The notes: generated by a model not told the origin, from the sequence alone. A DNA stretch of 32,000 bases from Fibrobacter succinogenes subsp. succinogenes S85 (GCF_000146505.1 NC_017448.1:2850001-2882000); one strand, 5' to 3'; numbered from the stretch's first letter, positions 2,773-32,000 are shown. Made by a program: numbers and translations.

Positions 2773-2829
2773 TAAACCATATTTGAATGAGTCTAAGACG
2801 GTTTGTCCAAGACAAGAAGGTGTTGTTTT

Positions 2830-3678: not shown

Positions 3679-3689
3679 TTGGATCTCTA

Positions 3690-5411: not shown

Positions 5412-5437
5412 CTCGTAAATATCTATTTTATAGCTAT

Positions 5438-9127: not shown

Positions 9128-9147
9128 TGGACTTACCTCACGACCCC

Positions 9148-10215
9148 TTAAGCGTTGAACTTTCCGAGCTTTTCCTGGGCGTTTGCCATCTGGAGACCAT
9201 TGATGATTTCATCGAGATCGCCTGTGACAACCTTGTCCAAGTTGTAAACGGTGAGACCAATGCGATGGTCCGTCACGCGGTTCTGCGGATAGTTGTAAGT
9301 GCGGATCTTGGCAGAGCGGTCACCAGTACCCACGAGGGCCTTGCGGTTTGCCGCTTCTTCCTTTTCCTTCTTGGCGATGACGGCGTCAAGAATCTTGGAA
9401 CGCAACATTTCCATAGCGTGCAAGCGGTTTTGCAACTGGCTACGTTCGGTCTGGCAGCTCACCACCACACCCGTCGGGATATGAGTCAAACGCACTGCGG
9501 AGTCCGTCTTGTTGATGTACTGACCGCCAGCGCCCGAAGAACGGTAGGTATCCATGTGGATGTCGGCTTCGCGGATTTCCACATCGACTTCTTCTGCTTC
9601 CGGGAGGATTGCGACTGTAGCTGCAGACGTATGCACACGGCCCTGCGTTTCCGTTTCCGGCACGCGTTGCACGCGGTGAACGCCACTTTCGAACTTGAGT
9701 GTTCCATAGACGCTGTCGCCTTCGATAAACACGCGGATTTCCTTGTAGCCACCCACCGTGCCTTCGCTCAAGTCCTGGATAGTCATCTTCCAGCCCATCT
9801 TGTCGCAGTAGCCGCGATACATGCGGAACAGGTCGCCCGCGAAAAGTGCGGATTCGTCGCCACCCGTACCGCCGCGAATTTCAAGCGTTGCGTTACGGTA
9901 GTCCCACGGATCCTTCGGCACCATCAAAATCTGGAGTTCGTCCGTCACTTCGGGGAGCTTCTTTTCGATCTCCGAAATTTCGGCCTTGGCCATCGCGACC
10001 ATTTCCGGGTCGGAATCGCCGAGGGCAGCCTTGTATTCGTCAAGGTCGTCCATCATCTGCAGGTATTCCTTGGCCTTCAAAACAGCCTTTTCGATACCCT
10101 TGTACTGCTTGTGAATCTTGTTGTAACGAGCCTGGTCTCCGAGAACATCCGGATTGCCGAGTTCCGATTCCAGTTCTTCGTACTTTTCAATGAGTTTTTT
10201 AGCTTTATCTTTCAT
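9148..10215 (-). CDS. prfA: Peptide chain release factor 1
   Basis: HRVQRVPETETQGRVHTSAATV (PxT-type RF1 motif) and SGAGGQYINKT (GGQ). I prefer ATG at 10215 (MKDKAKKLIEKYEEL). The track start 10311 adds 32 residues that do not look protein-like. Confidence 0.95.
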   Translation of the reverse strand: MKDKAKKLIEKYEELESELGNPDVLGDQARYNKIHKQYKGIEKAVLKAKEYLQMMDDLDEYKAALGDSDPEMVAMAKAEISEIEKKLPEVTDELQILMVPKDPWDYRNATLEIRGGTGGDESALFAGDLFRMYRGYCDKMGWKMTIQDLSEGTVGGYKEIRVFIEGDSVYGTLKFESGVHRVQRVPETETQGRVHTSAATVAILPEAEEVDVEIREADIHMDTYRSSGAGGQYINKTDSAVRLTHIPTGVVVSCQTERSQLQNRLHAMEMLRSKILDAVIAKKEKEEAANRKALVGTGDRSAKIRTYNYPQNRVTDHRIGLTVYNLDKVVTGDLDEIINGLQMANAQEKLGKFNA

Positions 10216-10382
10216 CGTGCGCAAATTTAGTAAAAGGCGAAGGCAGCGGCAAAACAACTTGTTGTTTTGACATTGCTGAGCCGAACTAAATGCGCTCCAA
10301 AGGAGCGCCAAGTAGAAAAGTGTGCAAGGCGAGTAAAGCGCGAAAATTTATTTTCGCATTTTTGAGCCGTGTCGCCATCTGT

Positions 10383-16120: not shown

Positions 16121-16918
16121 ATGAAAATGTTTAAAGTATTAATCGTTGCATTAATTGCCGCGTCGGTGGCTTGGGCTCAAATGCCTAAAGTAAATAAGCC
16201 CGCGGTTCCTTGCGAACATCGCGGTAGCTTTTTCAGCGTTGGCCTTGGCTTATCTTATATGAGTTTGTCCAAAGATGAATATGTTTCGCATCGTAGTGAA
16301 GATGGAGATTGGGATAATCCTTCGCATAGATATGTTGTAAAAAGTGTTAAATATTGGGGACCTAAAAGACATTGGGAATTTAGCGGCGCTGAAGCTCCTT
16401 CGCTAGATTTAAGGTTTGGCGGAACAATTGGAAATGTCGTCGCCTTGTATTTTACTTTTATGGGTGGTCTTTATAGGGGTACAGCGGTACGTGAAGAAAA
16501 TAATATTGAACAATATTATCTCCCCGATGCAAATGGCAATTTGATTTTTCAGTCGGAGAATAGCAAATCTTATTACAGGCGTGAATTTGATGCGATAGCC
16601 GCTTATGGCTGGTTTGGTGTCGGTTTCTCCGTTTATCCGTTCCGCGATCCATCTTCGCCGTTGAGAGGACTTTATTTTGGATTCTCCGGTGGTCTTGATG
16701 CTTTAGGTGTTCGTGTAGAAGACAATTATGATGACGTGGCGACGGAAAGTTATTTCTTACGCTATGAAGTCGGGAAGGATTGGTGGGTGAGCGAAACGTG
16801 GTCGATTGGCGTTGCGCTCTCATTTACGAATGTTGTCGGATTTGAAGACGACTACTATGGTAGCGATGGCGGCGGCCGCAAGGCGGTTACGCTTTTGTTC
16901 CGCATAACTCGCGGATAA
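16121..16918 (+). CDS. Secreted beta-barrel-like protein, tandem paralog B
   Basis: I prefer ATG 16121 (MKMFKVLIVALIAASVAWAQ). Motifs are PCEHRG, FGVGFSVYPFRDPSSPLRG, GKDWWVSETWSIG and C-terminal LFRITRG. Confidence 0.65.
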   Translation: MKMFKVLIVALIAASVAWAQMPKVNKPAVPCEHRGSFFSVGLGLSYMSLSKDEYVSHRSEDGDWDNPSHRYVVKSVKYWGPKRHWEFSGAEAPSLDLRFGGTIGNVVALYFTFMGGLYRGTAVREENNIEQYYLPDANGNLIFQSENSKSYYRREFDAIAAYGWFGVGFSVYPFRDPSSPLRGLYFGFSGGLDALGVRVEDNYDDVATESYFLRYEVGKDWWVSETWSIGVALSFTNVVGFEDDYYGSDGGGRKAVTLLFRITRG

Positions 16919-17966
16919 AACCTGTATCTATACCGTTTACAAGCAAGTTGGTGATAGCCTCGTCGCTACCCATCTTGCTTTTTTCTTTTATGTGGCGACC
17001 AAAAGTCTTGTGCCAGTCGAAACTGTCGGGGACGAGCTCGTCAAAGACTGGCCACGGCTTGATGAAACCTGGCGGGAGCAGTTTGTAGAGTTTTTCGGAA
17101 TTGATGCTCAAGTCGCCAACGCGCGGGGGCATGGGTCCGCCTTCGATACGCGGCACTCCATGGAGGAGCTCGGCGGGGTAGCCGCCGACCGCGTTCACGA
17201 TTTGACCGACGTTGTAAAGCGATACGCTACGCGGGCCGCCGCAGTTGTAAATGCCGGCGGGGAATTTATGTTCAAGAATGTATTGCACGGTACGGCAAAG
17301 GTCCGGACCCGAAAGCGGGTTGCGGAATTCATCGGTGAACAAGGTTGCTGGGCGACCGGGGCGGAAACGGTACGTAATCCAGTCAATGGCACCGGCGCAT
17401 CCGCCGGGCGCATAGTCCATCGGGAGCGGCACGCGGAGAATCACGACGTCAGGCTTGATAGCGGTAATCGCGTCTTCGGCTTCGGCCTGGTGCTTGCCGT
17501 AATTGTGGATGGGGTCTTTGGGGTCGGTTTCTACGTACGGGCGGTTTGGCTTTGTCTTCTCGTCACCGCTAAAGACCATGTCGGCAGAAATGCGGATGAG
17601 TGTCGCGTTGTAGCGTGCTGCGAATGTAGCTGCATCAACGCCCTGACTGTAATTCAAAAGTCGGCTGCGGGCAGGGTCGCATTCGCAAGCCTTAAGCGCG
17701 CAATTTCCGCTCGCGTCAATAACGGTACCAAAGCGGAATTTCTCAAAAAGTTCGCCCAATCGTTCTGTTTCTTCGGCATCTACGCCGAAGACGTTTTCTC
17801 CAAAAACGCACGGATGCTTGATGGGGCGAATCCCGATAATGCCCGGCACGTTCTCGCGAACGGTCGCGCTGCCGTACAATTTGTTGAAATGCCTAAAAAG
17901 TGCAAAGCCGGGAACGCCGTTCAGCCCGAGAATTAAAATCGGGAGGCGGATTGCGATAATTTCCAC
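16887..17966 (-). CDS. RmlD-like sugar-nucleotide-binding SDR reductase/epimerase
   Basis: N-terminal Rossmann ILILGLNGVPG; ISADMVFSG...PYVETDPKDPIHNYGKHQAEAE (YxxxK-type catalytic region). The only in-frame start is GTG 17966, which overlaps the NUDIX 3' end by 34 nt. Confidence 0.7.
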   Translation of the reverse strand: MEIIAIRLPILILGLNGVPGFALFRHFNKLYGSATVRENVPGIIGIRPIKHPCVFGENVFGVDAEETERLGELFEKFRFGTVIDASGNCALKACECDPARSRLLNYSQGVDAATFAARYNATLIRISADMVFSGDEKTKPNRPYVETDPKDPIHNYGKHQAEAEDAITAIKPDVVILRVPLPMDYAPGGCAGAIDWITYRFRPGRPATLFTDEFRNPLSGPDLCRTVQYILEHKFPAGIYNCGGPRSVSLYNVGQIVNAVGGYPAELLHGVPRIEGGPMPPRVGDLSINSEKLYKLLPPGFIKPWPVFDELVPDSFDWHKTFGRHIKEKSKMGSDEAITNLLVNGIDTGFIRELCGTKA

Positions 17967-18767: not shown

Positions 18768-19583
18768 ATGAAACCGATAACAGAATATCAAGATTACCGA
18801 AAGTACATGCTTGATTATTTTGAATGGCGAAAGAGAAGTTCTGTGTTCTCGTGGCGCGAATTTTCCAAAATCGCCGGATTCTCGTCGCCATCATACTTAA
18901 AACTTGTATGTGATGGCAAGAGCTCGCTGAGCCGCGTGGGCGTCCCGCTTGTGGCTGCCGCGATGGACTTGAATGATTTTGAACAGGAGTATTTCAAGCT
19001 CATGGTTGAATTCACGAATGCCAAAGACGATGACAAGAAAAAAGAAGCGTTCCTCAAAATGAAGGGGCTTGCAGACGAACAGCGTGCTAGAGTGTTGGAT
19101 GCTGATGCGTTTGATTACTACGAAACGGCAGTGAATTCCGTTGTTCGTGAACTTGCTCCGTTGATGCCTGGCGCACTTCCGGGTGAAATTGCCAAGAAAA
19201 TCAAGCATACGTTTACGGCGCAACAGGTCCGTGATTCATTAAAGCTTTTGGTGAAACTTGATTTGCTTAAGTCACTTGGCGAGAACGTCTACGAACAGAC
19301 AGACAAAGTCATTACGGGTTCAGGTGAAGCGCTTAAGCTTGCGCTCCGCTCCATGAATGGTCAGATGATAGACCTTGCCCGTGAAGCTATTGAAAAAATC
19401 GCTCCGGGTGAACGCAACATTTCGGGTGTGACGATTGGCGTTGACGAAGCTACAGTAATACGCATCTCTGAAGAAGTGGATCGTTTCCGCAAACAAGTTA
19501 TTGCTATCGCTAGCGAATCCAAGAAGATCAACCAAGTTTATCGTTTAAATTTACAGCTTTTCCCGCTGACGGAAAAAGTGTAA
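18768..19583 (+). CDS. TIGR02147-family protein (Fibrobacter paralogous family, DUF4423-type; putative HTH regulator)
   Basis: The N-terminus YQDYRKYMLDYFEWRKRSSVFSWREFSKIAGFSSPSYLKLVCDGKSSLS matches my recollection of the TIGR02147 consensus (Y.DYRkfL.dyy..kK...FSyR.Fa.kaGfsSp.fLklVi.GkrnLs). Confidence 0.8.
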   Translation: MKPITEYQDYRKYMLDYFEWRKRSSVFSWREFSKIAGFSSPSYLKLVCDGKSSLSRVGVPLVAAAMDLNDFEQEYFKLMVEFTNAKDDDKKKEAFLKMKGLADEQRARVLDADAFDYYETAVNSVVRELAPLMPGALPGEIAKKIKHTFTAQQVRDSLKLLVKLDLLKSLGENVYEQTDKVITGSGEALKLALRSMNGQMIDLAREAIEKIAPGERNISGVTIGVDEATVIRISEEVDRFRKQVIAIASESKKINQVYRLNLQLFPLTEKV

Positions 19584-19593
19584 GGAGGAAACC

Positions 19594-20406
19594 ATGAATC
19601 TCAAAAAAATCATTCCGCTTTCGTTCACTGCGTTGAGCGTGATGGGGGCCTTTACCGCTTGCTCCGATAATAAAGTGGTGGGGGCTGACGAACAGGCTAA
19701 TACGATGGCTGAACGTTCTAGTTCGTCTGTAGAGTTGGGCTCGTTGAGCTCAAGTAGCTCTTTGCAAGGTTGGAAAATTGATCGAGAAGGCGCTTTAGCA
19801 GCTCTTAGAAGTGTACGTAAAGAAACGGCGATTGCTTATACTTATCTGGCCGGAGATTCTGCTGAACAAATAGATACGGTTAATGCTTATGAATCTTTTG
19901 ACAGAGTTGTTCAAATAATCCTCAATAAAGATGGTTCTATAATCTTTGATGAGAATGCTAGAGGGTATGATAATGATTATCAGACTTATGCGTTAATGAA
20001 GGACGAAGAGGGCTTCGTTCATGGAGGATTATTGTTTGAACATGGGTTTAAAAACGTAGAACCCGGTTCGTCTCTCGAATTGACTTGCACCGGCTTGGAT
20101 AATTGGTATGATGTATACTTTAGATTCGTAGATGTTTCTGGAGTCCCGGACTCTGCTGCTATTAAATATTTTAGGTCCACAGATTCAACGATGAGGGATC
20201 AGTTTAGACAGGATTGTGCTCTTGAAAATGGTGAACTGACGGATGATCCTAAATTTTATCCTGATTTGGGCTGTAGAATCGATCCTAAATTAGTTGATGG
20301 CGTCCTGACATACAAAGATCCTTATTGGAAAAAGTATGCTACGCATATTATCGAAGGTTGTGTAACAACTCAGAATTTTGATGAATTGTTTGGTTTAGGC
20401 GACTAA
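19594..20406 (+). CDS. Lipoprotein, cassette paralog 1
   Basis: AAGGAGG RBS. MNLKKIIPLSFTALSVMGAFTAC-SD lipobox, then a Ser-rich linker. Shares F..DC..ENG and YKDPYWKKYA motifs with the next gene. Confidence 0.7.
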   Translation: MNLKKIIPLSFTALSVMGAFTACSDNKVVGADEQANTMAERSSSSVELGSLSSSSSLQGWKIDREGALAALRSVRKETAIAYTYLAGDSAEQIDTVNAYESFDRVVQIILNKDGSIIFDENARGYDNDYQTYALMKDEEGFVHGGLLFEHGFKNVEPGSSLELTCTGLDNWYDVYFRFVDVSGVPDSAAIKYFRSTDSTMRDQFRQDCALENGELTDDPKFYPDLGCRIDPKLVDGVLTYKDPYWKKYATHIIEGCVTTQNFDELFGLGD

Positions 20407-20454
20407 ATATATAAAAGGTTATATCTTTAAAAACTTTATATAAAGGAAAAGATT

Positions 20455-21246
20455 ATGAACTTCAAAAAAATCATTCCGCTTACGCTCGCTACCATGAGCG
20501 TGATGGGCGCCATTACCGCTTGCTCCGATAAATCGCCCGAGAACAATATTGTTGGTGTTGATGAACAACCTAATACGATGTCTGAAGTAAAAACTTTGTT
20601 TGGAAATGTAGTAAGTAGCGATGTGCAACGCGCCATGCTGGCTAAATATAAAGAAGATTCTAAGTCTAATGGTGCTGTTTCAGCTATTTTGGCTCATGAT
20701 AGTACTTTTCAGTTGAATACTATAAAAACGATTGATGGCGATGAATTTTATAATAATGAAATAAATCGAATACTCAGTATGGGCGATATTGATACTACGT
20801 ATGTAGAATATAAAGGGTGGGATTATTATTCTATGCTAGATGAAAATGGTGTACTGCATGGACCGATTTCGATATCCCATTCTGTTTTGGCGTATGATGT
20901 TACAAATAACGTTGGCTGCGTGAACGAAAATAAATGGTTTATAGAGGATAATGAAGTATATAGAATTAGCGAATATTATAGTGTTAGTGTAGGTTTTGGA
21001 AATGTTCAGATGAGACTTCAAACCAGAGATTCTCTTTTGACTGCTCAATTTATAGAGGATTGTAATGCCGAAAATGGAATATTCAGTGAGTACAAAGGTA
21101 ATCGGTATTATATTTTGGGGGAGGCTCATGTTGAATCATGGATAAATTGCGTTATGCAAAGAGACAATCCCTATAAAGATCCCCATTGGGTAAAGTATGC
21201 ATCATATATTATCAATAATTGTAGGTCCGATGTAGTTTCTTATTAA
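20455..21246 (+). CDS. Lipoprotein, cassette paralog 2
   Basis: MNFKKIIPLTLATMSVMGAITAC-SD. Motifs FIEDCNAENG and YKDPHWVKYA. The mature region is very AT-rich. Confidence 0.7.
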   Translation: MNFKKIIPLTLATMSVMGAITACSDKSPENNIVGVDEQPNTMSEVKTLFGNVVSSDVQRAMLAKYKEDSKSNGAVSAILAHDSTFQLNTIKTIDGDEFYNNEINRILSMGDIDTTYVEYKGWDYYSMLDENGVLHGPISISHSVLAYDVTNNVGCVNENKWFIEDNEVYRISEYYSVSVGFGNVQMRLQTRDSLLTAQFIEDCNAENGIFSEYKGNRYYILGEAHVESWINCVMQRDNPYKDPHWVKYASYIINNCRSDVVSY

Positions 21247-21316: not shown

Positions 21317-22639
21317 TTACTTGATCTTCAAAGACCAGGCTTTATTGCCGATTTTTACCACGTATACACCCTTGGCGCCGGTGTAAACTTTCTGTTCAAG
21401 GCCAAGACCCTTTGTAGTGCGGACAACGTTACCGAGGCTGTTGAACACTGTGATGCTCAAACCCTGGGCGTTCTGAACGGTGATGTAACCGCTTGCGTCC
21501 ACGTAGGCTGCGAGGTGGCGACCGTCAAATGCTTGCGTTGGGAGAGCGGTTGTGCTGCTTGAAGAAACTTCCGGTTCGCTGGAGCTGGACTGTGGCGGTT
21601 CAGCGCTGCTGGAAGATTCCGGAGCGGCTGCGGCGGCGTTCTTCACGACAATCTTGCCTGCGTTCGGGACTGCATCAAAGTAAATGTAACCGCCGTCGAC
21701 CTTGGATTCGAGCTTTGCGCCATCCTGCGTGACTTCGACCTTCTTCCAGTCGCTCTTTACGCGAATAGAAAGCGGATAATCGTACTTGGAAATGTTGTCT
21801 GCGATGCTGTGCTTGAGTTCAAAAGCCATCGTGTTTGCTGCCCCACCGTCCTGCGGTTCGATTTTAGAGGCCTTGCGTTCCTTGAGGTACATGGCGACAT
21901 GGCCCATCGGGGCAACCCAGATGTCCTTATCGTTCTGCTGGGCCCATTTGAGCGCGCCATCGATGGCGTTGATATCCGTCGGGGAGTAGTTGGCGTTGCC
22001 GTTGTTCTTGCCTTGGAAACCGTGAGTGAGGAATGCCGCCCAGCCGTTGCTCTGAATAACTTTCTGCATTCTGCCGGTAAAGTCGTTCGTGCTCTTGAGC
22101 TGGCCTTCGGCACCGGTCATGGTGGCAGGGACCTGGGCCCAGTTGCTCGGGCCATCCTTGCCCATTTCATCATTCATGCCCTTCCAGCTGCCGTTGCAGA
22201 TACGGCCCACGATGTAGTTCTGCTTGACCGCGCTTTCGTTAGGCACGTTGCAGTTCGGGTAGGCGACAGTGATAATACCGTATTTCTGTTTGATATGGCT
22301 TTCGATATTTTTTTTCGAAGAAGCTTCTTCGCCACTCATGTTATTGCCGTGGCTATTGCTGTGGCTTGCGATTTCGTGCCCTTCGTCGGCCAGGCCCTGG
22401 AATCCGCTCCAGTTGGGGTTCCAGTTCACCACCAGGTTGAAGGTAGCCTTGTAGCCATACTTCTTGAACATCGGACCAGCGTCGGTCACGTGGCTCGGTG
22501 CGCCATCATCGAACGTGAAAGACGCTGCACCCTTGCGGAAACCCGACCAGGTTGCGATTTCTGCATCCTGCGCGAATGCGGCGCCTGCTGCGAACATTCC
22601 AACTGCGACAGAGGCAATAGAAATTTTTTTGTAGTTCAT
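21317..22639 (-). CDS. Polysaccharide deacetylase / carbohydrate esterase family 4 protein with C-terminal sorting-type domain
   Basis: I prefer ATG at 22639 (MNYKKISIASVAVGMFAAGAAFAQD signal). NodB motifs FTFDDG and HSNSH. A Ser/Pro linker follows. The last ~70 aa (ITVQNAQGLSITVFNSLGNVV...GVYVVKIGNKAWSLKIK) resemble a T9SS type-A C-terminal domain. Confidence 0.75.
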   Translation of the reverse strand: MNYKKISIASVAVGMFAAGAAFAQDAEIATWSGFRKGAASFTFDDGAPSHVTDAGPMFKKYGYKATFNLVVNWNPNWSGFQGLADEGHEIASHSNSHGNNMSGEEASSKKNIESHIKQKYGIITVAYPNCNVPNESAVKQNYIVGRICNGSWKGMNDEMGKDGPSNWAQVPATMTGAEGQLKSTNDFTGRMQKVIQSNGWAAFLTHGFQGKNNGNANYSPTDINAIDGALKWAQQNDKDIWVAPMGHVAMYLKERKASKIEPQDGGAANTMAFELKHSIADNISKYDYPLSIRVKSDWKKVEVTQDGAKLESKVDGGYIYFDAVPNAGKIVVKNAAAAAPESSSSAEPPQSSSSEPEVSSSSTTALPTQAFDGRHLAAYVDASGYITVQNAQGLSITVFNSLGNVVRTTKGLGLEQKVYTGAKGVYVVKIGNKAWSLKIK

Positions 22640-22768
22640 TATCCACACCTTGTTAATAGTATTATGCGAAAATAATTTACCCCCGTATATAAGGAACCGT
22701 CCCACGTTAAATTTCTTTTTGTTGTATAGTAATGCAACAGGGGAGGGGTAAATTCTATATTTCCCTAC

Positions 22769-23980
22769 ATGGATTTACAGTCGATTCTCTCCTCCGTTCT
22801 GGACGAAGTTTACGAAAAAAACGAATACCCCGCACTTGCGGCGCTTGAAAGCGAATGGACACATACCCGTCCGTTTGATGGCCTCCGCGTGCTGGTGGCA
22901 ACCCCGATTTACCGCAACACCATGACTGAATACCGTGCTCTCGTGGCGGGCGGAGCCGACCTTCTTGTGGGTTTTTCGGAATTTAACGACCCCGATGTCG
23001 TGGACTTTATGAGGGAATGGGGTGTACCCGTCGTAACGCCTGCCGAAATGCTCGAAGCCGAATCTCGTGGCGAGTTTGTGGACTTGGTGCTCGACTGTGC
23101 GGGGCCTTTTGCGGTACTCCACCCGAAAATTGGCTTTGTGGAACTCACACGTTCGGGTGTACACTATTATAAAGATGCCGAAAAACCGGTTTACGTCGCC
23201 GATAGCGGTATCGTAAAGCGGATCGAAACCTCCCTGGGTACAGGCGATGGCTATTTCCGCGGTCTCGAAAAATTGGGCCTTGGAGGCGATTTCGAAGGCA
23301 AGAAGTTATTGGTTTTTGGTAGTGGCAAAGTTGGTTCCGGAATTGCGCTCCAGGGCGTGCGCCGAGGCTGCAATGTGACCGTTGTGACGGACTTGAAACG
23401 CGGGCAGTCTCAAACAGCGAATTCCGAAAATGCTGAACATTCCGCGGCTCCTGAAACAATGCCTGCAGGCGATTTTTCTGCCGTCCTTGAGCAAAATGAC
23501 GTGGCTGTCGTGGATTGCCATGACTATGCAACTGTCGCCTCCTTGATTGAAAATTCCGATTTTGTTGTGACGGCGACGGGTGTCAAAAATGCCCTTGCAG
23601 CCCCGGAATTGACGGAAGCACTTCTCTCGACCAAGGCAATTCTTGCCAATATGGGTGTCGAAGATGAATACGGCGAGGCTGTTCCCACGGAAAAAGTGCT
23701 CAATGATAAAGGTCCGCTGAACTTCATTCTTGAGGAGCCGACACATTTAAAGTACATTGATACGTCGCTTGCGCTCCATGCTGCCCTTGCCGAACGCTTG
23801 GTTCAAGAAGCCGCGACTCTTGAAGACTCTTCCGATGCTGCTTCTGCTGAAATTTCCGCCGGACTTCGCTTCCCGCCGCAAGAAATTGAACAGCGCTTGC
23901 TCACTATTGCCATACAAAATGGCGTCATTGGCCCTGAAATTTGCAGCATGCTCGGCGGCATCCCCACCGAAATGGACTAG
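22769..23980 (+). CDS. Divergent S-adenosylhomocysteine-hydrolase-like NAD-binding protein
   Basis: RPFDGLRVLVATPIYRNTMTEYRALVAGGADLLV parallels SAHH KPLKGARIAGCLHMT..LIETL.ALGAEV. Rossmann motif is LLVFGSGKVGSGIALQGVRRGCNVTVVTD. Also VVTATGVKNAL and ILANMGVEDE. The function is not assignable. Confidence 0.5.
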   Translation: MDLQSILSSVLDEVYEKNEYPALAALESEWTHTRPFDGLRVLVATPIYRNTMTEYRALVAGGADLLVGFSEFNDPDVVDFMREWGVPVVTPAEMLEAESRGEFVDLVLDCAGPFAVLHPKIGFVELTRSGVHYYKDAEKPVYVADSGIVKRIETSLGTGDGYFRGLEKLGLGGDFEGKKLLVFGSGKVGSGIALQGVRRGCNVTVVTDLKRGQSQTANSENAEHSAAPETMPAGDFSAVLEQNDVAVVDCHDYATVASLIENSDFVVTATGVKNALAAPELTEALLSTKAILANMGVEDEYGEAVPTEKVLNDKGPLNFILEEPTHLKYIDTSLALHAALAERLVQEAATLEDSSDAASAEISAGLRFPPQEIEQRLLTIAIQNGVIGPEICSMLGGIPTEMD

Positions 23981-23988
23981 GTGCGACA

Positions 23989-24831
23989 ATGACTCCCGAG
24001 AACATGAAAAAGGTTGTCGATCTCTGCAACCAGATTTCGAACATCACCTACGAGAATTTGACGAAAATCATCCGTCTGGAACAGACGGGGAGCGCGACTG
24101 GCGCCCGCAAGCTTGACGATAGCGACCAGAATGATATTGATTCTTGGATGGGCGGCGGCACCTGCTTTAGCATGACGTGGCACCTTTACCAGGCGCTCAC
24201 AGACATGGGCTTCAAGCCGCGTCTTGTCATGGGCCATAAGCGCAAAGAGCGCAACATCCACTGCGCCCTCATCTTGCCCGATCCCGATGATAGTTTTGTC
24301 ACCCCGGGGCAACCCTTTTCTGCAAATGTCTCCCCGGCCTCCGTGCCGGGGTCGGTTCTCTCGTCTAATTCATACCTTCTCGACCCCGGTTACTTGATTT
24401 TCGACCCGCTCCAGATGCCGCTCCCGCAGCCGTTTGGCACCGGCGAAGCGTTTTTCCCGCTTTCCCCGAACTGCGTGCGTCTCGTGCGCCCGACGCTTGA
24501 ATCGATGGAACTCTGGACAGGTGGCGCAGGCGCGCCAATGAAGCTCCGCTTCGAGTACCCTGTTGAAGGCGTTTCCGTCGAAGAATTCAAGCACCATTGG
24601 AACGAGAGTTTCTACCGCGAAATGATGACCTACCCGGTCTTGAACCGCCTTGACCGCGAAAAGGGCATCCAGTATTACTACCAGAAGGGGAACCTCGTCG
24701 TCCGCAATGCTACAGGCTCAAAAATGACGAAAATTGAGCCCGCCGATCGCGTGCAGACGCTCAGCGATATCTTTAAACTGTCGCCCTCCATCATCGAGCA
24801 GGCGCTCCAGATTCTTGAGAAAAAGCACTAG
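23989..24831 (+). CDS. Arylamine N-acetyltransferase-like (Cys-His-Asp fold) protein
   Basis: I prefer ATG 23989 (AGGTG 7 nt upstream), 8 nt after the upstream stop. GGGTCFSMTWHLYQALTDMGF parallels the NAT segment RGGYCFE.N.L....L..LGF. Candidate His is in NIHCALIL and candidate Asp in YLLDPGY. 280 aa, matching NAT length. Confidence 0.45.
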   Translation: MTPENMKKVVDLCNQISNITYENLTKIIRLEQTGSATGARKLDDSDQNDIDSWMGGGTCFSMTWHLYQALTDMGFKPRLVMGHKRKERNIHCALILPDPDDSFVTPGQPFSANVSPASVPGSVLSSNSYLLDPGYLIFDPLQMPLPQPFGTGEAFFPLSPNCVRLVRPTLESMELWTGGAGAPMKLRFEYPVEGVSVEEFKHHWNESFYREMMTYPVLNRLDREKGIQYYYQKGNLVVRNATGSKMTKIEPADRVQTLSDIFKLSPSIIEQALQILEKKH

Positions 24832-24860
24832 AAGGCGTTTTTCTTATCTAAATTAAAAGC

Positions 24861-24889
24861 TTGGCAATTGCCCCCAAATTTTCTATCTT
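24861..24889 (+). promoter_or_regulatory. Candidate promoter of the MATE gene
   Basis: TTGGCA (24861-24866), 17-nt spacer, TATCTT (24884-24889). This leaves a leader of about 105 nt. Confidence 0.35.
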
Positions 24890-25001
24890 TGCGCGCGAAA
24901 AACGAGGTTTTTGCGACGTTTTCCGCATTTTGCGGTTATTTTGAGCGGCTCCGCGCATCTAGTCCAACCATTTGCGTCTTGCGGGCCTCACGGGTGTGTT
25001 T

Positions 25002-26396
25002 ATGGAAGATGTAATAAACAATAAAAAACTTAACGCGATGGGGACGGCAAGTATCCCGAAGATTGTCTTGCAGTTTTCGGTCCCTGCCATCATCAGTATG
25101 CTCGTCGAAGCGCTCTACAATATTGTGGACCGCTATTTCGTGGGTCAGGGCGTCGGTAGCCTTGGCATCGGCGGCATCACCATCTGCTTTCCGATTGCCC
25201 TTTTCATTATGGCGATGTCCATGATGGTTGGCGTGGGTGGCAACACGCTTTTTGCCATCCGTCTCGGCGAACGCAAGTACCAGCAGGCAGCCATTATCCT
25301 CAACAACTCCTTTGTATTGCTCATCATTATGGCGGTGAGCTCCTTTACGCTTGGCCAGATTTTCATGGAGCCGCTCCTCAAGCTCTTTGGCGCTAGCGAC
25401 CAGCTTTTGCCTGTGGCCTCGAGTTACATGCGCATCATCTTGTGCGGTGCGATTTTCCAGACGATTGTCCCCGGCATGAACCACTTTATCCGCAGCATGG
25501 GCCACCCGAAAACGGCCATGACCCGCGTGATGATTGGCGCTGGCAGTAACGTGATTCTAGACTGGCTTTTCATCATGAAGTTCAACTGGGGCATTGAGGG
25601 CGCTGCTTGGGCGACTGTCTTGAGCCAGTTCATCGGCGGCCTTGCCGTGATGCAGTTCTTCGTGAAAAAGACGACGCCTATCAAGGTCAACCGCCGTTAC
25701 ATGAAGCTCCGCCTCCCGTATGTGCGCAAAATCTTCATTCTTGGCCTTCCGCCGAGCATTATGCAGATTAGCAACAGCCTTGTGAACGCCATTTTGGCCC
25801 GCAGCCTCACATCGTATGGTACTCGTGACTTGCCGATAGTGAACGGTATGACGGGAGGCGACCAGGCAATTGCCGCATTCGGAATCCTGATGAGTATCGT
25901 CTCCATGATTGTTTTGCCACTTATGGGCTTTGTGACGGGCTCTCAACCGATTATCGGGTACAATTACGGCGCAAAGTACAACAACCGTGTCCGTGACGCG
26001 CTCAAGTTCACCATGCTCTATGCAACGGCGTTCATCGTGATTGCGTGGATTCTCATGATGACGAATACGCTTGCGTTTGTGGCGCCTTTTGTGCCGAACG
26101 ACCAGAACATGCAACAGCTCACGTGCAAAGCTCTCCGCACCTTCATTTGCATGATGCCGTTTGTACCGCTAGGTATGGTGTCGGGTAACTTTTTCCAGGG
26201 AACGGGCAAAGCCTGGCGTTCGATGTTCCTAAACGCTTGCCGTCAGCTTATTTTGCTGATTCCGTTCCTGTTTATTATGCCGCGTTTCTTCGGACTCCGT
26301 GGCGTGTTCATGGCTCAGCCCATCGCGGACTTTGTGACGGCCTTTATCGCCATCATCATGCTCCGCGCCGAACTCAAAAACATCCCGCGCATCTAG
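25002..26396 (+). CDS. MATE-family multidrug/efflux transporter
   Basis: I prefer ATG 25002 (MEDVINNKKL). IPKIVLQFSVPAIISMLVEALYNIVDRYFVGQGVG is the classic MATE N-terminus. About 12 hydrophobic segments. Confidence 0.9.
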   Translation: MEDVINNKKLNAMGTASIPKIVLQFSVPAIISMLVEALYNIVDRYFVGQGVGSLGIGGITICFPIALFIMAMSMMVGVGGNTLFAIRLGERKYQQAAIILNNSFVLLIIMAVSSFTLGQIFMEPLLKLFGASDQLLPVASSYMRIILCGAIFQTIVPGMNHFIRSMGHPKTAMTRVMIGAGSNVILDWLFIMKFNWGIEGAAWATVLSQFIGGLAVMQFFVKKTTPIKVNRRYMKLRLPYVRKIFILGLPPSIMQISNSLVNAILARSLTSYGTRDLPIVNGMTGGDQAIAAFGILMSIVSMIVLPLMGFVTGSQPIIGYNYGAKYNNRVRDALKFTMLYATAFIVIAWILMMTNTLAFVAPFVPNDQNMQQLTCKALRTFICMMPFVPLGMVSGNFFQGTGKAWRSMFLNACRQLILLIPFLFIMPRFFGLRGVFMAQPIADFVTAFIAIIMLRAELKNIPRI

Positions 26397-27274
26397 GGCG
26401 CAGTGTTGAGCAGTCCATCGCTTTCGGCGATGAGCTCGTTCATCTGCGTGACTTCGGCGCCCTGGCGCGACACAAGCCCAATGGAAATCGTCACAGGGAT
26501 TCTGGAATCCATCCATGAGAATATGTGGCGTTCAATGACCAAACGCATTTTTTCGGCGCGCTTTTTCGCGTCTTCGGGTGAAATCCCGTTCATGAGGAGC
26601 ATGAACTTTTCGCCTTTGTTGCGTGCGAGCAAATCCGAATCACGCTTCTCGTCGTTCAATAGCCTTGCTACTTCCTTCAAAATCAGGTCGCCGCACATTT
26701 CGCCGTTGGTTTCCGTCAGTTGCTTGAATCCATCCACGCGAATCATCGCTACGTGGACGAAAGCACCCCCACGGCGGGCGCTTACAAGTTCACCTGCCGA
26801 GCGGTCCATGAATGTTTGGTGGTTCAGAAGCCCCGTCAGTTCATCCAACGTCGCCGCTTCGTAAAGCTCACGACTAAATGCTTCTTCGTTCGAATCCTTG
26901 TAGGCGATTTTCAGTACGATTTTACCAATCTGGAGCCTGTTGTCCGAATCGAGAATTTGCTTATTTATATAGTTACCGTCCACGAACGTCCCGTTCGTGC
27001 TGCCGAGGTCTTCGACCGTCACGCTCTGGCCGTCAAACGTGAGTGCGCAATGTCTGCGGCTTACCAGTTCGTCTTCAAAACGGATGTCGGCGTCTTGTCC
27101 GCGACCGAGCACCACGGTCCCCAATTCAAGCGGGAGCTCCGCGAATTCACTTTGCGGGTACAGCACGATCAAGTGCGGGTGAACGGCCATCGGTTTTAAA
27201 ATTTCCATAAAATCCCTTGTAAATCCCGACCCAAATATAGGAAGTCGGAGCTCCATCGGGTATTGCGGAGTCAT
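26393..27274 (-). CDS. FHA-domain protein with degenerate GGDEF domain
   Basis: FHA: VVLGRGQDADIRFEDELVSRRHCALTF..VEDLGSTNGTFVDG. GGDEF domain: DELTGLLNHQTF...IRVDGFKQLTETNGEMCGD...RDSDLLARNKGEKFMLLM...VTISIG. Its stop overlaps the MATE stop within CTAG (26393-26396). Confidence 0.8.
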   Translation of the reverse strand: MTPQYPMELRLPIFGSGFTRDFMEILKPMAVHPHLIVLYPQSEFAELPLELGTVVLGRGQDADIRFEDELVSRRHCALTFDGQSVTVEDLGSTNGTFVDGNYINKQILDSDNRLQIGKIVLKIAYKDSNEEAFSRELYEAATLDELTGLLNHQTFMDRSAGELVSARRGGAFVHVAMIRVDGFKQLTETNGEMCGDLILKEVARLLNDEKRDSDLLARNKGEKFMLLMNGISPEDAKKRAEKMRLVIERHIFSWMDSRIPVTISIGLVSRQGAEVTQMNELIAESDGLLNTAP

Positions 27275-27365
27275 GTCTTTTTTGTCTGTGACCGCGTAAT
27301 GTCTGTCCCTTGCCTAAATATATGATACGTCTATGATACAACCGAAATCACACTCTCTGTAAAAG

Positions 27366-27399
27366 TTGCATTTACATAGGCTCTTTTGTAAAAATGCAA
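27366..27399. promoter_or_regulatory. Inverted repeat in the divergent control region
   Basis: TTGCATTTaca..(10 nt)..tgtaaAAATGCAA has perfect 8-bp outer arms. It lies between the FHA-GGDEF start (27274) and the giant ORF start (27578). Confidence 0.3.
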
Positions 27400-27577
27400 T
27401 TACAAACAATGTTGAAAGTTTGTGAATTAGTCTGTGGATTTCCTTACATAAATTTTTTTTCACAATGATTTACAAGAAAAAATTCCCTTTTTTGGTTTAA
27501 AAAAGTAGATTTCAGTCGGTGTAGTATATCGAGGAGGCTGGTCTTCTTGATGTTCTGCGTGGTCGGAGAGAACCGAA

Positions 27578-30500
27578 ATGGATAAAAAAACAATGAAGAA
27601 CAGAATCAAATCCTTTAAATTGTGGGTGTTGAGCTGTGCTATGCTCATTGCCGGTGTTCAAAGTGCATCGGCATCATTGACCGGGTGTGAGGGAACCGTT
27701 TATCTAAAGTTGCCTGATAGTTGGACTGCCGCTTATTCTGCTGCTGGTGGCCAGTTTGTGGCTTTTTCAAAGAGTACGACGTATACCGGTTGGTACGAAA
27801 TTAGCTCTACCAAAATCGGTGGTACGAACGGAGCTACAGAATTCTTTATCTCGAAGGCTCTGAATGACTATGGCCAGCAGGGTGGTATTACCAAGACCAC
27901 TATTGGCGCCAATGTCCAGTTTGATCAGGGTAAGGGCTTCTCTTGCGCCGATTTCGGTACAAAGACGAACGAACTCTGGATTCAGCCTGATTTCTCGGAT
28001 CCGACCAAGCCGTTAGTTCAGGGTGAACCGCCTGACGTCAAGTATTTCTATGTGTTCTTGCCGGATGACAAGATTTGGAAGAGCTCCGATCCTATCATTG
28101 TCGAAAATGGCAAAGAACGTAAGATGAACATTGACGAAAACTGCGGCTGGTACTACAGACGCTATGTCAATGAATCTCTCCCGACCGAAGTCATTATCCG
28201 TCGTGATGATGATACCGAACTCAAGTATGCTATCGGTATGGATGGCGAAAAGGGTTATAACAACGGCGATGCTGCTATTCCAATAGATTTGGAAGGCATG
28301 TTTGATAACTTTAAGTCGGATGCTACCTTTGCTGGCTCTCTCTTCTTTGTCGCTGACGAAAAGCAGGCTGCCGCACTTCCGAGTGATTTTGCTGGTTGGT
28401 ATGTCGACAGGCCGGATATTCACGGTAACTGCTCTTACAACCTCGCTGCTATTATTTACGATACTGACGCTAGCTTGCATCCGGCATTCTCTTGCTGGAG
28501 CCAGGGTGGTGAAGGCTGCCAGGCTATGACTGGTGTTGCCGCTCAGGGTGTTGACAAGACTGTTGCCCTTGCTGCTATCGATGCTTGTATCGGTGTTACT
28601 TCTGGCCTTGTGGAAAGCACCTTGGATAAGGCTACCAAGAAGCCGAAGCTCTCTACGAAGGGTAAGAAGTGCTTTATTGACGACGCTTACTTCAACCAGT
28701 TGTTCAACTACACCGCTGGTGTGAACGAAATGACTTGCTTTGATATGCCGTTTAGCCGTGCAAAAGATGGCAAGTGGGAATTTAATTCCGATGACTATGT
28801 CAGCCCGGGTATGAAGATTGAAGTTCCGGGTGGTTTCTATCCGGCAGAAGCTACGGACGCCCTCAAGCTTGAAGAAGCTAAGGCTGGCCAGACTCCGGTT
28901 CCGGCAGCTCGTACCAAGCGTTATGCTCAGGGTCCTGCTTACTATGGTGCCGCTCTCCGCGCCATTGATCCGGCTACGGATATGCCTGTTATTGACGTCT
29001 ATTGCAATGGCCCGGGTTGGAAGAAGGGGCATGATTGCGAAGGTATCTTTGGCGACGGTACTGTTACCGAAGCCCAGATCCGCTCTGATTTGGACCTTAC
29101 GAATGGCGATTTGATTATTGGCTGGGATGATGTCAATAACGCTCCTGATGGCTGGCCGATTTTTGCGGGTGGTTCTGAAACTTTGGCTACCTCTACGACC
29201 ACGACTAAGTCTACTCGTTGGGAATCTAAGGAAGGTGTTGCTTCTGGCAATGGTGGCCGTAACCAGCACTTCTGCTTCGAATCTCATGCTAACTTCCGTT
29301 TCAAGCCGGGTCTGAAGTTCAACTTCCGCGGTGACGACGACATTTGGGTCTTTATCGATAACAAGCTTGCTGTGGACCTCGGTGGTACTCACCTTGCAGC
29401 ACCGGGCTATGTGGACTTGGATACGTTCATGCCGAACGCCAAGACCGACTCTACCTATGATATCGATATCTTCTTCTGCGACCGCCGTACGACGATGAGT
29501 AACGTCCGTATCAAGACGAACATGTTCATCGAACAGAATACGGGTATTGAATACGAAGGCTTCCAGAACCTTGAACAGTGGAAGCTCACTGGCGATAACG
29601 AATTCGAACTTTGCTTTACCCAGTCTGGTGCCGGTAACTGCGCTGCCCAGGTTGGTGCCGCAAGCACAAAACTCTGCGGTGAACAGATTAAGGCCGCCGG
29701 TCATACCATTGCTTACCAGTTCACCAGAAATGATCCGACTGGCTCTGCTCCTGGTTCCATAATTGTTTCTGAAGAAGATTTCGCCGCTAATCCGGTCCAG
29801 CTCGAAGGCATTATCGATGTGACGAACCCGGGTAAGCCGGTTGTCAACGAAAAGAAGTTGATGGAAAGCCTCTCTCAGGGTACGTACTATCTGCGCATCA
29901 AGATTGATACCGAAATTGCAACGATGTCCTGGACCATTAAGGGTAGCGTTGGCCTTACTTCTCGTAACGCTGTCGTTGAAGCCGATGGCAAGACGAGCGC
30001 TGAAATTCCGTTTGTCTCTTCTGCTATGGCTTCGGACAAAAAGACTACTGCCGACGGTATGATTCGTCTCCTCGTCGCTCCGGTTGTTGATCCGTGTGCA
30101 GGTAACGCAGCTTGCACGACTCCGCTCAAGTTGAACCCGTCTGTCGGTGATGAATACTCCTTGGTATCTACCAATACAAAGGCCGTGTTCTACGAAATGA
30201 AGGGCGGTGTACTTACCCAGTTCGATCCGAGCAGAACTCGCAAGATTGGTGCTGGTGGTATCGATACTATTTATGTCACGGTTCCGTTCTCTGAATTTGA
30301 CGTGAGCGACGTTGAAAAGGTGACCGTCAATGTTAAGCAGAGCTCTCTCAAGGCTGAACTTTCCTTCTTCGTTCCGAAGATTGTGTTTGTGACCTCCGAG
30401 ACCTCTTTGGAGCAGCCTGATATGACCAAGGACCTTGAAAAGATGAAGCTCGAAATGGTCGACTTCTACATTCTCGCCCTTGACCAGAACAACAATCCTT

Positions 30501-32000
30501 GCTTGACCTGTAACTTTGATTTGGGCCGCGGATCTCAGACCTCAGCTGGTATCAAGATTGTTACGGGTGCCGATAATACTATCTCTGTCAAAGATGGCCG
30601 TGCAACGGTGACTATCTATTCTGAACTCACGTACGAACGTGGAGGCACAAATGGTGTTGCAGCCCTCCACTTGACGGGTCCGGCTCCGACTTTGATGTCT
30701 GCCCTCTATCCGAACTTGATCTTTAGCGAACCTCCGGTTCCGATGCCGAAGTTTGCTGATATCTTTGACGTTCATGGTGAAACACCGACGACGGAAATGA
30801 ATGTTGAAGCTCCGTACTTCAGCATGCAGACAGAATACCTCGATGGTATCGCAGACTCCATTGTCATCTACTACGCTCGTGAATTCCATAAGGACTCTCT
30901 CCCGGGCAAGATCGCTATCTTCTGGGAAGAAGACGCTAAGGATTCTGTGCTCTTTGAAAAGGACGAAGTTGCTGCAGGTGCTTATTGCGGTATGCCTGCT
31001 GCATCTGCCGACTCCTTGTGCGCTCCGAAAATCACTCTTGGCGGCAAGAAGCTCTCCAAGAAGGTGAAGACGGGTGGCGTGGGTAAGATTAAGTCCTGGG
31101 CTACTTACATGTCTCGTGGTACCGTGGTCACGCAGGATTACTCTTGCACGATTTACGACCGTATTGCTCCGGTTATCATCGGTGCGAGAGCCAAGACCGA
31201 AGCTTCTAGCGAAACGGTGAAGCTTACTATCCAGTTCTCTGAACCGATTCAGAAGTCTACCGATGCTGCTGCTGAAGGCGACAAGATGCTTTCCTTCTTC
31301 ATCAATAACGGCAAGGCAACTGGTTTCTATGAACACATCCCGCTTTTGACGGGTACTTCCTTCCCGGAAGGTTCGACCAACGAAAACCTCACGTTGCTCT
31401 ACAGCCAGAAGAATAGCTCCGGTGTATTCCCGCAGTCTGGTGACTACATCCACTTCAGACATCTCATGATTACCGATCAGTCTGACTATATGACCTATCC
31501 GGGGGCTGATACGATTCGTCCGGCTGATGATGCCTCTTTCAAGTGGAACGTCGCTACGGGTTATGATCCTCTCGGTTCTGGCCGTAAGCCGTCTCCGTGG
31601 GCTCTGATCTCTGGTCAAGTTAACTCCTATGCTGTAAGACTCATTCCGGATGCCAAGGGTGGCATTCCGAAGACTCCGGGTGAAGCTGCAAACCTCGATG
31701 TTGTGGAAGTCTTTACCTATGATGCTGCTAAGGACGATGATGACTTCAGAAAGGATATCCGTGCTGGTCAGGGCGAATTTGAAAAGTATGGCTTCATTCC
31801 TCATGGCTGGTATGTCAAGAGCGATATGGGCAATTTGATTGAATCGGAAGACCAGTTCGTCAATGCCGACAAGAAGAACGTGTTCTTTGATTATGAACTC
31901 CAGTTCTTCACGAATCTTGGTTCGTTTGTCGCTAGCCAGAAGGGCCGCATCTATTGCGATGACGATGAAAACATGAAGAACAACAGAAAGTACTACTTCG
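27578..32000 (+). CDS. Very large secreted fibro-slime-domain protein, 3'-truncated by window end (at least 1474 codons)
   Basis: Hand translation of frame +2 found no stop from ATG 27578 (GGAGAG 8 nt upstream) to nt 32000. Signal peptide is MDKKTMKNRIKSFKLWVLSCAMLIAGVQSASA. Residues ~557-653 (nt 29246-29536) read GNGGRNQHFCFESHANFRFKPGLKFNFRGDDDIWVFIDNKLAVDLGGTHLAAPGYVDLD...YDIDIFFCDRRTTMSNVRIKTNM, which is the fibro-slime/PA14-like signature. All + strand track ORFs in this span are in a different frame (frame 0). This ORF is not in the supplied track. Confidence 0.85.
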   Translation, partial: MDKKTMKNRIKSFKLWVLSCAMLIAGVQSASASLTGCEGTVYLKLPDSWTAAYSAAGGQFVAFSKSTTYTGWYEISSTKIGGTNGATEFFISKALNDYGQQGGITKTTIGANVQFDQGKGFSCADFGTKTNELWIQPDFSDPTKPLVQGEPPDVKYFYVFLPDDKIWKSSDPIIVENGKERKMNIDENCGWYYRRYVNESLPTEVIIRRDDDTELKYAIGMDGEKGYNNGDAAIPIDLEGMFDNFKSDATFAGSLFFVADEKQAAALPSDFAGWYVDRPDIHGNCSYNLAAIIYDTDASLHPAFSCWSQGGEGCQAMTGVAAQGVDKTVALAAIDACIGVTSGLVESTLDKATKKPKLSTKGKKCFIDDAYFNQLFNYTAGVNEMTCFDMPFSRAKDGKWEFNSDDYVSPGMKIEVPGGFYPAEATDALKLEEAKAGQTPVPAARTKRYAQGPAYYGAALRAIDPATDMPVIDVYCNGPGWKKGHDCEGIFGDGTVTEAQIRSDLDLTNGDLIIGWDDVNNAPDGWPIFAGGSETLATSTTTTKSTRWESKEGVASGNGGRNQHFCFESHANFRFKPGLKFNFRGDDDIWVFIDNKLAVDLGGTHLAAPGYVDLDTFMPNAKTDSTYDIDIFFCDRRTTMSNVRIKTNMFIEQNTGIEYEGFQNLEQWKLTGDNEFELCFTQSGAGNCAAQVGAASTKLCGEQIKAAGHTIAYQFTRNDPTGSAPGSIIVSEEDFAANPVQLEGIIDVTNPGKPVVNEKKLMESLSQGTYYLRIKIDTEIATMSWTIKGSVGLTSRNAVVEADGKTSAEIPFVSSAMASDKKTTADGMIRLLVAPVVDPCAGNAACTTPLKLNPSVGDEYSLVSTNTKAVFYEMKGGVLTQFDPSRTRKIGAGGIDTIYVTVPFSEFDVSDVEKVTVNVKQSSLKAELSFFVPKIVFVTSETSLEQPDMTKDLEKMKLEMVDFYILALDQNNNPCLTCNFDLGRGSQTSAGIKIVTGADNTISVKDGRATVTIYSELTYERGGTNGVAALHLTGPAPTLMSALYPNLIFSEPPVPMPKFADIFDVHGETPTTEMNVEAPYFSMQTEYLDGIADSIVIYYAREFHKDSLPGKIAIFWEEDAKDSVLFEKDEVAAGAYCGMPAASADSLCAPKITLGGKKLSKKVKTGGVGKIKSWATYMSRGTVVTQDYSCTIYDRIAPVIIGARAKTEASSETVKLTIQFSEPIQKSTDAAAEGDKMLSFFINNGKATGFYEHIPLLTGTSFPEGSTNENLTLLYSQKNSSGVFPQSGDYIHFRHLMITDQSDYMTYPGADTIRPADDASFKWNVATGYDPLGSGRKPSPWALISGQVNSYAVRLIPDAKGGIPKTPGEAANLDVVEVFTYDAAKDDDDFRKDIRAGQGEFEKYGFIPHGWYVKSDMGNLIESEDQFVNADKKNVFFDYELQFFTNLGSFVASQKGRIYCDDDENMKNNRKYYF

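Follow-up and report, generated by a model that had tools for sequence, protein, structure and literature searches.

An open-ended reading frame identified as the fibro-slime protein FSU_2502 of Fibrobacter succinogenes S85, a proposed head-stalk-anchor adhesin

What is encoded at the end of the 32,000-nucleotide stretch of DNA considered here (the window), where a long reading frame runs off the last nucleotide, and how might its product work? A preliminary description of the window had proposed that this region holds a giant gene for a protein with a fibro-slime domain, unlisted in the accompanying open reading frame (ORF) track. Translation of the + strand from 27578 to 32000 gave 1,474 codons without a stop, as had been claimed, and the frame continues past the window edge; because the chance of 1,474 stop-free codons in random sequence is about (61/64)^1474, or ~2e-31, the open frame is not fortuitous. 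An in-frame TGA lies at 27548, and the first ATG downstream of it is at 27578. The Shine-Dalgarno-like GGAGAG described earlier is present on the + strand at 27565..27570, 7 nt 5' of this ATG, and is kept in the closest orthologues only. Codon counts agree with the bias reported for the frame (ggt/ccg/aag/gaa/ctc), with AAG used 90 times, GCT and GGT 78 times each, GAA 76 times, and CCG 55 times, and with CTC as the top leucine codon. The nearest database protein, P0001, comes from Logan assemblies; it departs from the window's 1,474 residues at 4 positions and indicates a full length of 1,549 aa, in keeping with the prediction of a protein longer than 1474 aa; the stop codon thus falls ~225 nt past the window end, and the last 75 codons lie outside.

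We identify this frame with near certainty as the 5' 4,423 nt (codons 1-1474 of 1549; 27578..32000, + strand) of the gene for FSU_2502 (Fisuc_1979, UniProt A7UG66) of Fibrobacter succinogenes S85. All 24 A7UG66 peptides that we recovered from the supplementary mass spectrometry (MS) tables of two S85 proteomics studies are exact substrings of the protein, with 339 residues covered. Joining window residues 1-1474 to the tail of P0001, we computed a mass of 169.37 kDa, an isoelectric point (pI) of 5.00, and a grand average of hydropathy (GRAVY) of -0.312 (-0.3119). For Fisuc_1979/FSU_2502, Raut et al. (2015) list 169.38 kDa, pI 5, and GRAVY -0.312, with a signal peptide (PMC4619616). The annotated S85 gene order is Fisuc_1977 (MATE), 1978 (diguanylate cyclase), 1979 (fibro-slime), and 1980 (SPOR); the window order of MatE, FHA-GGDEF (- strand), and fibro-slime (+ strand) is the same, and the SPOR gene published downstream is matched in two orthologous loci (L001 and L015). 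Because peptides, mass, pI, GRAVY, and gene order all agree, we conclude that the window ends inside FSU_2502/Fisuc_1979. Between FSU_2502 of S85 and the window protein, which lacks the last 75 codons, we detected no difference in peptides, mass, pI, GRAVY, signal peptide, or flanking genes.

The gene is therefore genuine, as the preliminary description held, but it had not been overlooked. It is annotated, experimentally detected, and repeatedly studied, and FSU_2502 is the founding fibro-slime protein, formerly known as the 180-kDa cellulose-binding glycoprotein (PMC4619616). Its absence from the ORF track reflects the design of the list, which omits frames running off an end, and not a mis-annotation. 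S85 has ten fibro-slime paralogues, FSU_2502 among them (PMC3079729). We found >427 homologues of the protein, and all those that carry an organism name are from Fibrobacter; a scan of genome collections returned orthologous loci at <=60% identity.

Published work on FSU_2502 already describes much of its behavior. The protein has been found in the envelope, in outer-membrane vesicles (OMVs), and in the medium, and it binds cellulose. With antibodies to the 180-kDa protein, adhesion to cellulose fell by 62%; the antigen gathered where contact was made (Gong et al. 1996, as cited in PMC4668043). The envelope of cells grown on cellulose holds more of the protein: envelope preparations yielded 17 and 12 FSU_2502 peptides on two celluloses versus 2 on glucose, and a quantitative study gave a 1.66-fold increase on cellulose (PMC4619616, PMC6851124). 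In OMVs the protein has been detected in a complex with FSU_2396 (OmpA), FSU_2397 (TPR), FSU_2078, and cellulases (PMC6851124, PMC8092306). Its transcript is constitutive, lying in the top 98th percentile under all chemostat conditions, with a log2 expression of ~13.5 compared with ~7.6 for the divergent neighbor, and in gnotobiotic sheep it is the one fibro-slime gene with high in vivo expression. The locus tag recurs in a 2025 transcriptome study; in the literature since 2021 that mentions fibro-slime, we found no paper on the structure or mechanism of FSU_2502.

To this record we added a domain map, for which the two halves of the protein were modeled separately with AlphaFold, ~70 homologues were aligned, and the parts were read from secondary structure, dips in confidence, and conservation. 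The model of residues 1-820 had a mean predicted local distance difference test (pLDDT) of 85.7 and a predicted template modeling score (pTM) of 0.73; the corresponding values for residues 780-1549 were 86.6 and 0.64. The signal peptide claimed earlier is present at residues 1-32 (27578..27673, + strand), the extent also given by the published prediction, and pLDDT is <50 over the same residues. Its sequence, MDKKTMKNRIKSFKLWVLSCAMLIAGVQSASA followed by SL, combines a basic n-region with a hydrophobic core and an AxA site (ASA/S33). Downstream of the AxA site (within 27578-27690), a lipobox-like L-T-G-C37 fits [LVI][ASTVI][GAS]C; in the consensus of 70 family members, C37 is nearly invariant with leucine at -5 and the AxA site is kept, but the spacing of the lipobox is not conserved. 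The published S85 MS tables lack SLTGCEGTVYLK, the semi-tryptic peptide from the mature N terminus by which the site of cleavage would be fixed.

The mature chain is modeled to begin with two beta-sandwich modules (residues 33-152 and 153-270; 27674..28387, + strand), with pLDDT ~90 and no Pfam match. They are followed by a cysteine-rich alpha/beta region (residues 271-560; 28388..29257, + strand; pLDDT ~90) that is continuous with the fibro-slime core and carries the invariant motifs IYDTDASLHPAFSC, GGFYPxE, and CNGPGW. Between residues 285 and 634, ten cysteines are invariant across 70 sequences, including C285, C306, C314, C337, C365, C387, C476, and C487, and because of this invariance the sequences suggest a head stabilized by disulfides. 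D295, D297, H301, E401, and E424 are invariant polar residues outside the core. No match to Pfam, NCBIfam, or PDB sequences was obtained for region 271-660 outside the TIGR02148 core.

The core itself (residues 561-660; 29258..29557, + strand) shows the strongest conservation anywhere in the protein. The fibro-slime assignment made earlier holds firmly, with TIGR02148 scoring 133.2 bits (cutoff 45) over residues 561-650 and profile positions 2-89 of 90. The diagnostic segment GDDDIWVFIDNKLAVDLGG occupies residues 585-603, in which G585, D587, and D588 are invariant, with D586 nearly so. Mean identity to 67 homologues was 83% in the core, 45-52% in the remaining head, and 52% in the C-terminal domain; in the stalk it was ~40% overall, ranging over 37-58%, with most modules at 37-42%. 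The proposed relationship to PA14 is supported at the level of the family, while the window copy by itself scores below the cutoff. Pfam PA14 matched the full protein at residues 557-642 with 18.4 bits, and the isolated core of the window copy reached 23.5 bits, both under the gathering score of 24, but 12 of 12 isolated cores from family members matched, the best with an E value of 1e-9. Because all 12 match, the core is at family level, as judged by these profiles, a divergent PA14-superfamily sandwich. A Foldseek search of the PDB with the head returned only generic sandwiches (non-catalytic domains of GH2 proteins, template modeling (TM) score 0.08) and no PA14 structure, and PDB sequence searches with the whole protein and with a profile of the fibro-slime core gave 0 matches.

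The description of the fibro-slime domain as shared almost only by Fibrobacter and Dictyostelium is a 2004-era account; TIGR02148 is reported across the Fibrobacteres except C. alkaliphilus, at ~0.2 copies per genome as a mean over 3,454 bacterial species (PMC4704652). According to the literature, the Dictyostelium "slime" proteins share the ~90-residue TIGR02148 core that named the domain; the rest of the architecture is Fibrobacter-specific. The other nine S85 paralogues (Fisuc_0377, 1326, 1327, 1474, 1475, 2031, 2293, 2471, and 2484) and related Fibrobacter types have a TIGR02148/PA14-like core, and many also have the C-terminal domain of ~130 residues, but they differ from FSU_2502 in stalk length and in the position of the core (residues 60-480).

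C-terminal to the core, residues 661-1400 (29558..31777, + strand) appear to form a stalk of about six immunoglobulin (Ig)/macroglobulin (MG)-like beta-sandwich modules and a linker, the region being all-beta in both models. For the C-terminal half of the protein, Foldseek returned MG/Ig chains at TM scores of 0.11-0.19 (A2ML1, alpha-2-macroglobulins, C3/C5, the S-layer protein SbsC, PorU, and cadherins), which would fit a stalk built of beta-sandwich modules without pointing to anything narrower. All-against-all hhalign comparison gave a maximum probability of 15%, and we rejected the idea that the two N-terminal modules or the stalk modules arose by internal duplication.

Beyond the stalk, a conserved basic domain begins (residues ~1401-1549; 31778..32000 on the + strand, the window ending at residue 1474). 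The model shows it as compact and beta-rich over ~130 residues (~1401-1540) at pLDDT 92-96, and its consensus over residues ~1410-1540 is TNLGxYV...C.D...F.G.C..N...F..WN..S..GR.VG.GAY. The last 130 residues have a pI of 9.2 compared with 5.0 for the whole protein. Residues 1053-1549, searched exhaustively against 1.84 billion cluster representatives, returned 244 proteins at E<=0.001, many of which, with lengths of 600-1,860 aa, match only query positions ~358-488 (protein residues ~1410-1540). In 50 carriers, the distance between the end of the match and the C terminus has a median of 7 residues and is within 30 in 49 of them. When 46 carriers were scanned singly, 26 had TIGR02148 and 25 had PA14; the position of the fibro-slime head varies widely (residues 60-480), and in a few carriers Big_1/Big_5, invasin, or VWA modules take its place. 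Two shorter types of paralogue, P0095 (1,135 aa) and P0113 (1,021 aa), align just to residues 37/153-1058 and lack the C-terminal ~490 residues. A profile of the domain run against a 5.8-billion-protein set was uninformative, returning just 21 short fragments from contig ends, which bore neither names nor domains.

The domain has no match in Pfam or NCBIfam, and its profile found 0 matches in the PDB. Models of sorting domains of the type IX secretion system (T9SS; TIGR04183/Por_Secre_tail) matched neither the whole protein nor its last 182 residues at E<=10, and T9SS type A, type B, and FlgD_ig models matched 0 of 46 carriers at E<=0.1. A likeness of W-N..S..GR.VG.GAY to FlgD-Ig/T9SS sorting domains was considered and is not supported as membership, with none of the 46 carriers matching and one weak FlgD match (E = 0.0012). 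The C-terminal-domain peptides KNFFIVWNMK, LVGSGAYITK, and LNSYVQLDTFGK, together with the terminal TIGSFPSLLP, were recovered in S85 envelope proteomes in both data sets, and since peptides are recovered to the last residue, the domain stays on the mature protein. For S85 cellulases, Raut et al. (2019) obtained no peptides from a basic C-terminal domain and interpreted it as a cleaved T9SS signal. The two are alike in being basic, beta-rich domains at the extreme C terminus of secreted surface proteins of one organism, whereas the domain of FSU_2502 is not removed and has no T9SS or FlgD_ig match among its 46 carriers. That it serves as an anchor or export signal is a possibility we rate below even odds. 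Still more tentatively, it may be a signal or anchor for surface display that is particular to fibro-slime proteins and has not been described before, using a Fibrobacter export or attachment route distinct from cleaved T9SS-type signals and possibly offering a docking point for the TPR/OmpA complex. This domain is the sole part of the present findings that may be new.

Taken together, these observations are best explained, in our estimate with a probability of about 0.9 for the whole, if FSU_2502 is a head-stalk-anchor adhesin with a mature mass of ~166 kDa, exported by the Sec pathway and displayed on the cell surface and on vesicles. Several steps have been demonstrated by others, namely very high constitutive transcription, the occurrence of a cellulose-binding protein in envelope, vesicles, and medium, and the lowering of adhesion by antibodies; Sec export is predicted. 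The conserved N-terminal head, made of two beta-sandwich modules and a disulfide-rich module of ~390 residues with the PA14-like core, would be the end that contacts glycan. The fast-evolving stalk of about six modules would act as a spacer projecting the head off the outer membrane or vesicle surface, and the retained basic C-terminal domain could be an export, anchoring, or docking element for the TPR/OmpA complex. That the protein acts as an adhesin is likely; that its head is the cellulose-binding site we consider only slightly better than an even bet.

Glycan-binding proteins with PA14 domains include the yeast Flo/Epa adhesins and the sugar-binding domain of a bacterial RTX ice-binding adhesin, and in PA14 lectin adhesins an acidic pair before the central strand binds calcium and sugar. 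We infer from the pattern of constraint, and because of these PA14 lectin adhesins, that the head would contact cellulose. PA14 adhesins (PF07691) resemble FSU_2502 in their layout, with a beta-sandwich head for glycan binding carried on a stalk that is long and repetitive, and an acidic "DD" motif stands before the central strand in both (GDDDIWVF in the window copy), although equivalence of the calcium site would follow by analogy. They are unlike it in that the window copy scores under the Pfam cutoff and its core is embedded in the ~390-residue cysteine-rich module.

The most serious alternative, though one we think unlikely, is that FSU_2502 serves mainly as a scaffold for cellulases, TPR, and OmpA proteins, an analogue of cohesin/scaffoldin systems in which cellulose is contacted through the carbohydrate-binding modules (CBMs) of the partners. 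Membership in the multiprotein OMV complex with FSU_2396, FSU_2397, FSU_2078, and cellulases is what such a scaffold would show, a long multi-module stalk offers many interaction surfaces, and family profile scans with the fibro-slime protein found no recognized CBM family and no enzyme family. However, the protein was first isolated by its binding to cellulose, antibodies to it lower adhesion, and the strongest constraint falls on the PA14-like core (83% identity) and not on the stalk. Scaffold and adhesin roles are not mutually exclusive.

An improbable reading makes region 271-660 catalytic or cellulose-disrupting (amorphogenesis), which would help to explain cellulolysis without processive exocellulases. 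In its favor are the five invariant polar residues outside the core (D295, D297, H301, E401, and E424) and the want of Pfam, NCBIfam, and PDB sequence matches to the region; against this, no similarity to an enzyme family was found, the GH2 matches in Foldseek are to non-catalytic beta-sandwich domains only (TM 0.08), and ~30 years of work on the protein have brought no report of activity. It is less probable still that FSU_2502 is a mobile SprB-like surface adhesin driving gliding-like oriented movement on cellulose fibers, a hypothesis raised in the genome paper (PMC3079729) and in PMC6291624. In its favor, FSU_2502 is a surface protein that is large, repetitive, and rich in beta structure and has its own C-terminal domain, and S85 degrades cellulose along the crystallographic axis; against it, motility of Fibrobacter has never been shown and the T9SS type A and type B models match none of the 46 carriers of the C-terminal domain.

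There is only a very slight chance that the window was drawn from a strain very near S85 but distinct from it, its gene then being an allele of FSU_2502. The top database entry, P0001, differs at 4 residues, and the published peptides cover just two of these positions. At both covered positions, however, the S85 data side with the window against P0001: the peptides IVTGADNTISVK(DGR) and TPGEAANLDVVEVFTYDAAK(DDDDFRK) carry the window residues T996 and V1376, both of which are methionine in P0001, and the alternative peptides of P0001 are not found in the S85 tables. For Q741 and V1353, neither allele's peptide is reported there. The agreement of GRAVY to three decimals and of mass within 0.01 kDa also speaks against a different allele.

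Over the fibro-slime gene, the ORF track offers just two long ORFs, both antisense, as the preliminary description noted in warning that they might be mistaken for genes. Each lies on the - strand, shares the codon register of the sense frame, and lacks a Pfam match: 28013..29704 (563 aa), whose stop is the reverse complement of a sense TTA at 28013, and 30542..31804 (420 aa), whose stop is the reverse complement of a sense TCA at 30542. For an antisense ORF in this register, every stop must lie opposite a sense TTA, CTA, or TCA; such codons make up 5 of the 1,474 in the fibro-slime frame (0.34%), compared with a share of 0.83% across nine other window genes. Because both ORFs are in register and end exactly at two of those five codons, we regard them as shadows of the sense frame; judged from sequence, they are by-products of its codon bias. 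That either or both encode real proteins has for it their length alone (563 and 420 codons) and virtually no likelihood, given that they lie in register with a frame whose translation is proven by MS peptides, stop where the sense strand reads TTA and TCA, and have no Pfam match. Further long antisense ORFs occur in the window at 9046-10230 (+), opposite the RF-1 gene (9148-10311, -); at 16992-17936 (+), opposite an RmlD-like gene (16887-17966, -); and at 21809-22675 (+), opposite a polysaccharide deacetylase gene (21317-22705, -). These appear to be shadow ORFs as well; one was scanned and had no Pfam match.

The divergent neighbor, Fisuc_1978 (26393..27274, - strand), had been described as a gene of cyclic di-GMP (c-di-GMP) type. 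It does combine FHA (Pfam, 68.5 bits) and GGDEF (91 bits) domains and is annotated in S85 as a diguanylate cyclase, but its catalytic motif is degenerate, with KGEKF at residues 220-224 in place of GG(D/E)EF; the RxxD motif is intact. Among its orthologues, ten have GGEEF and that of Fibrobacter sp. UBA4297 has DGEKF, and RxxD is present in all with the canonical five-residue spacing. The cyclase site has probably been lost in the S85 lineage, and synthesis of c-di-GMP by Fisuc_1978 is unlikely there; from its motifs the protein may be a c-di-GMP sensor. Raut et al. tie c-di-GMP to growth on cellulose and leave Fisuc_1978 unmentioned. The FHA-GGDEF neighbor is divergent in all 12 orthologous loci that have an upstream flank.

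Between the two genes, the promoter/leader of the fibro-slime gene (27410..27577, + strand) is highly conserved. Over the ~170 nt 5' of the start, alignment of 11 orthologous loci showed long invariant blocks, including ATAAATTTTTTTTCACA, AGAAAAAAT, AAAAAGTAGATTTC, and GGTGT, though the proteins are just 47-67% identical. A scan for sigma-70 patterns found no more sites in the leader than in shuffled sequence. A structured RNA was considered and is not claimed: the leader has no Rfam match, and its possible 7-bp hairpin (27530-27549) shows wobble changes only and no compensatory pair.

Within its locus, FSU_2502 evolves faster than any other gene. In orthologous locus L010, identities were 98% for MatE, 92% for the adjacent ORF, 85% for the deacetylase, 74% for the GGDEF protein, and 50% for the fibro-slime protein; in comparisons of 21317-32000 with loci L001-L015, the divergence of the last was concentrated in the stalk modules. 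Elsewhere in the window, three tandem ORFs (18768-21246, + strand; 271, 270, and 263 aa), of which the first matches DUF4423, recur as a trio in Fibrobacter sp. UBA4297 and may constitute a paralogous family of Fibrobacter. At 2803-7354 (+ strand), a sigma-70-family gene is followed by genes for two large proteins with TPR repeats (573 and 658 aa). TPR proteins have been proposed as partners of FSU_2502 in vesicles, but judged by locus position these two are not the published FSU_2397/2398.

For the reading of such windows, the omission of frames that run off an end hid a gene of a model cellulolytic bacterium, that of its most highly expressed adhesin, and left two shadow ORFs in its place, so that open-ended frames and codon register merit checking. 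FSU_2502 is central to the attachment of Fibrobacter to crystalline cellulose and to its digestion, which proceed without cellulosomes or processive exocellulases. The gain brought by the domain map is incremental: it reduces the protein to a short list of constructs, namely the conserved PA14-like head, the fast-evolving stalk, and the uncatalogued C-terminal domain that is retained on the mature protein.

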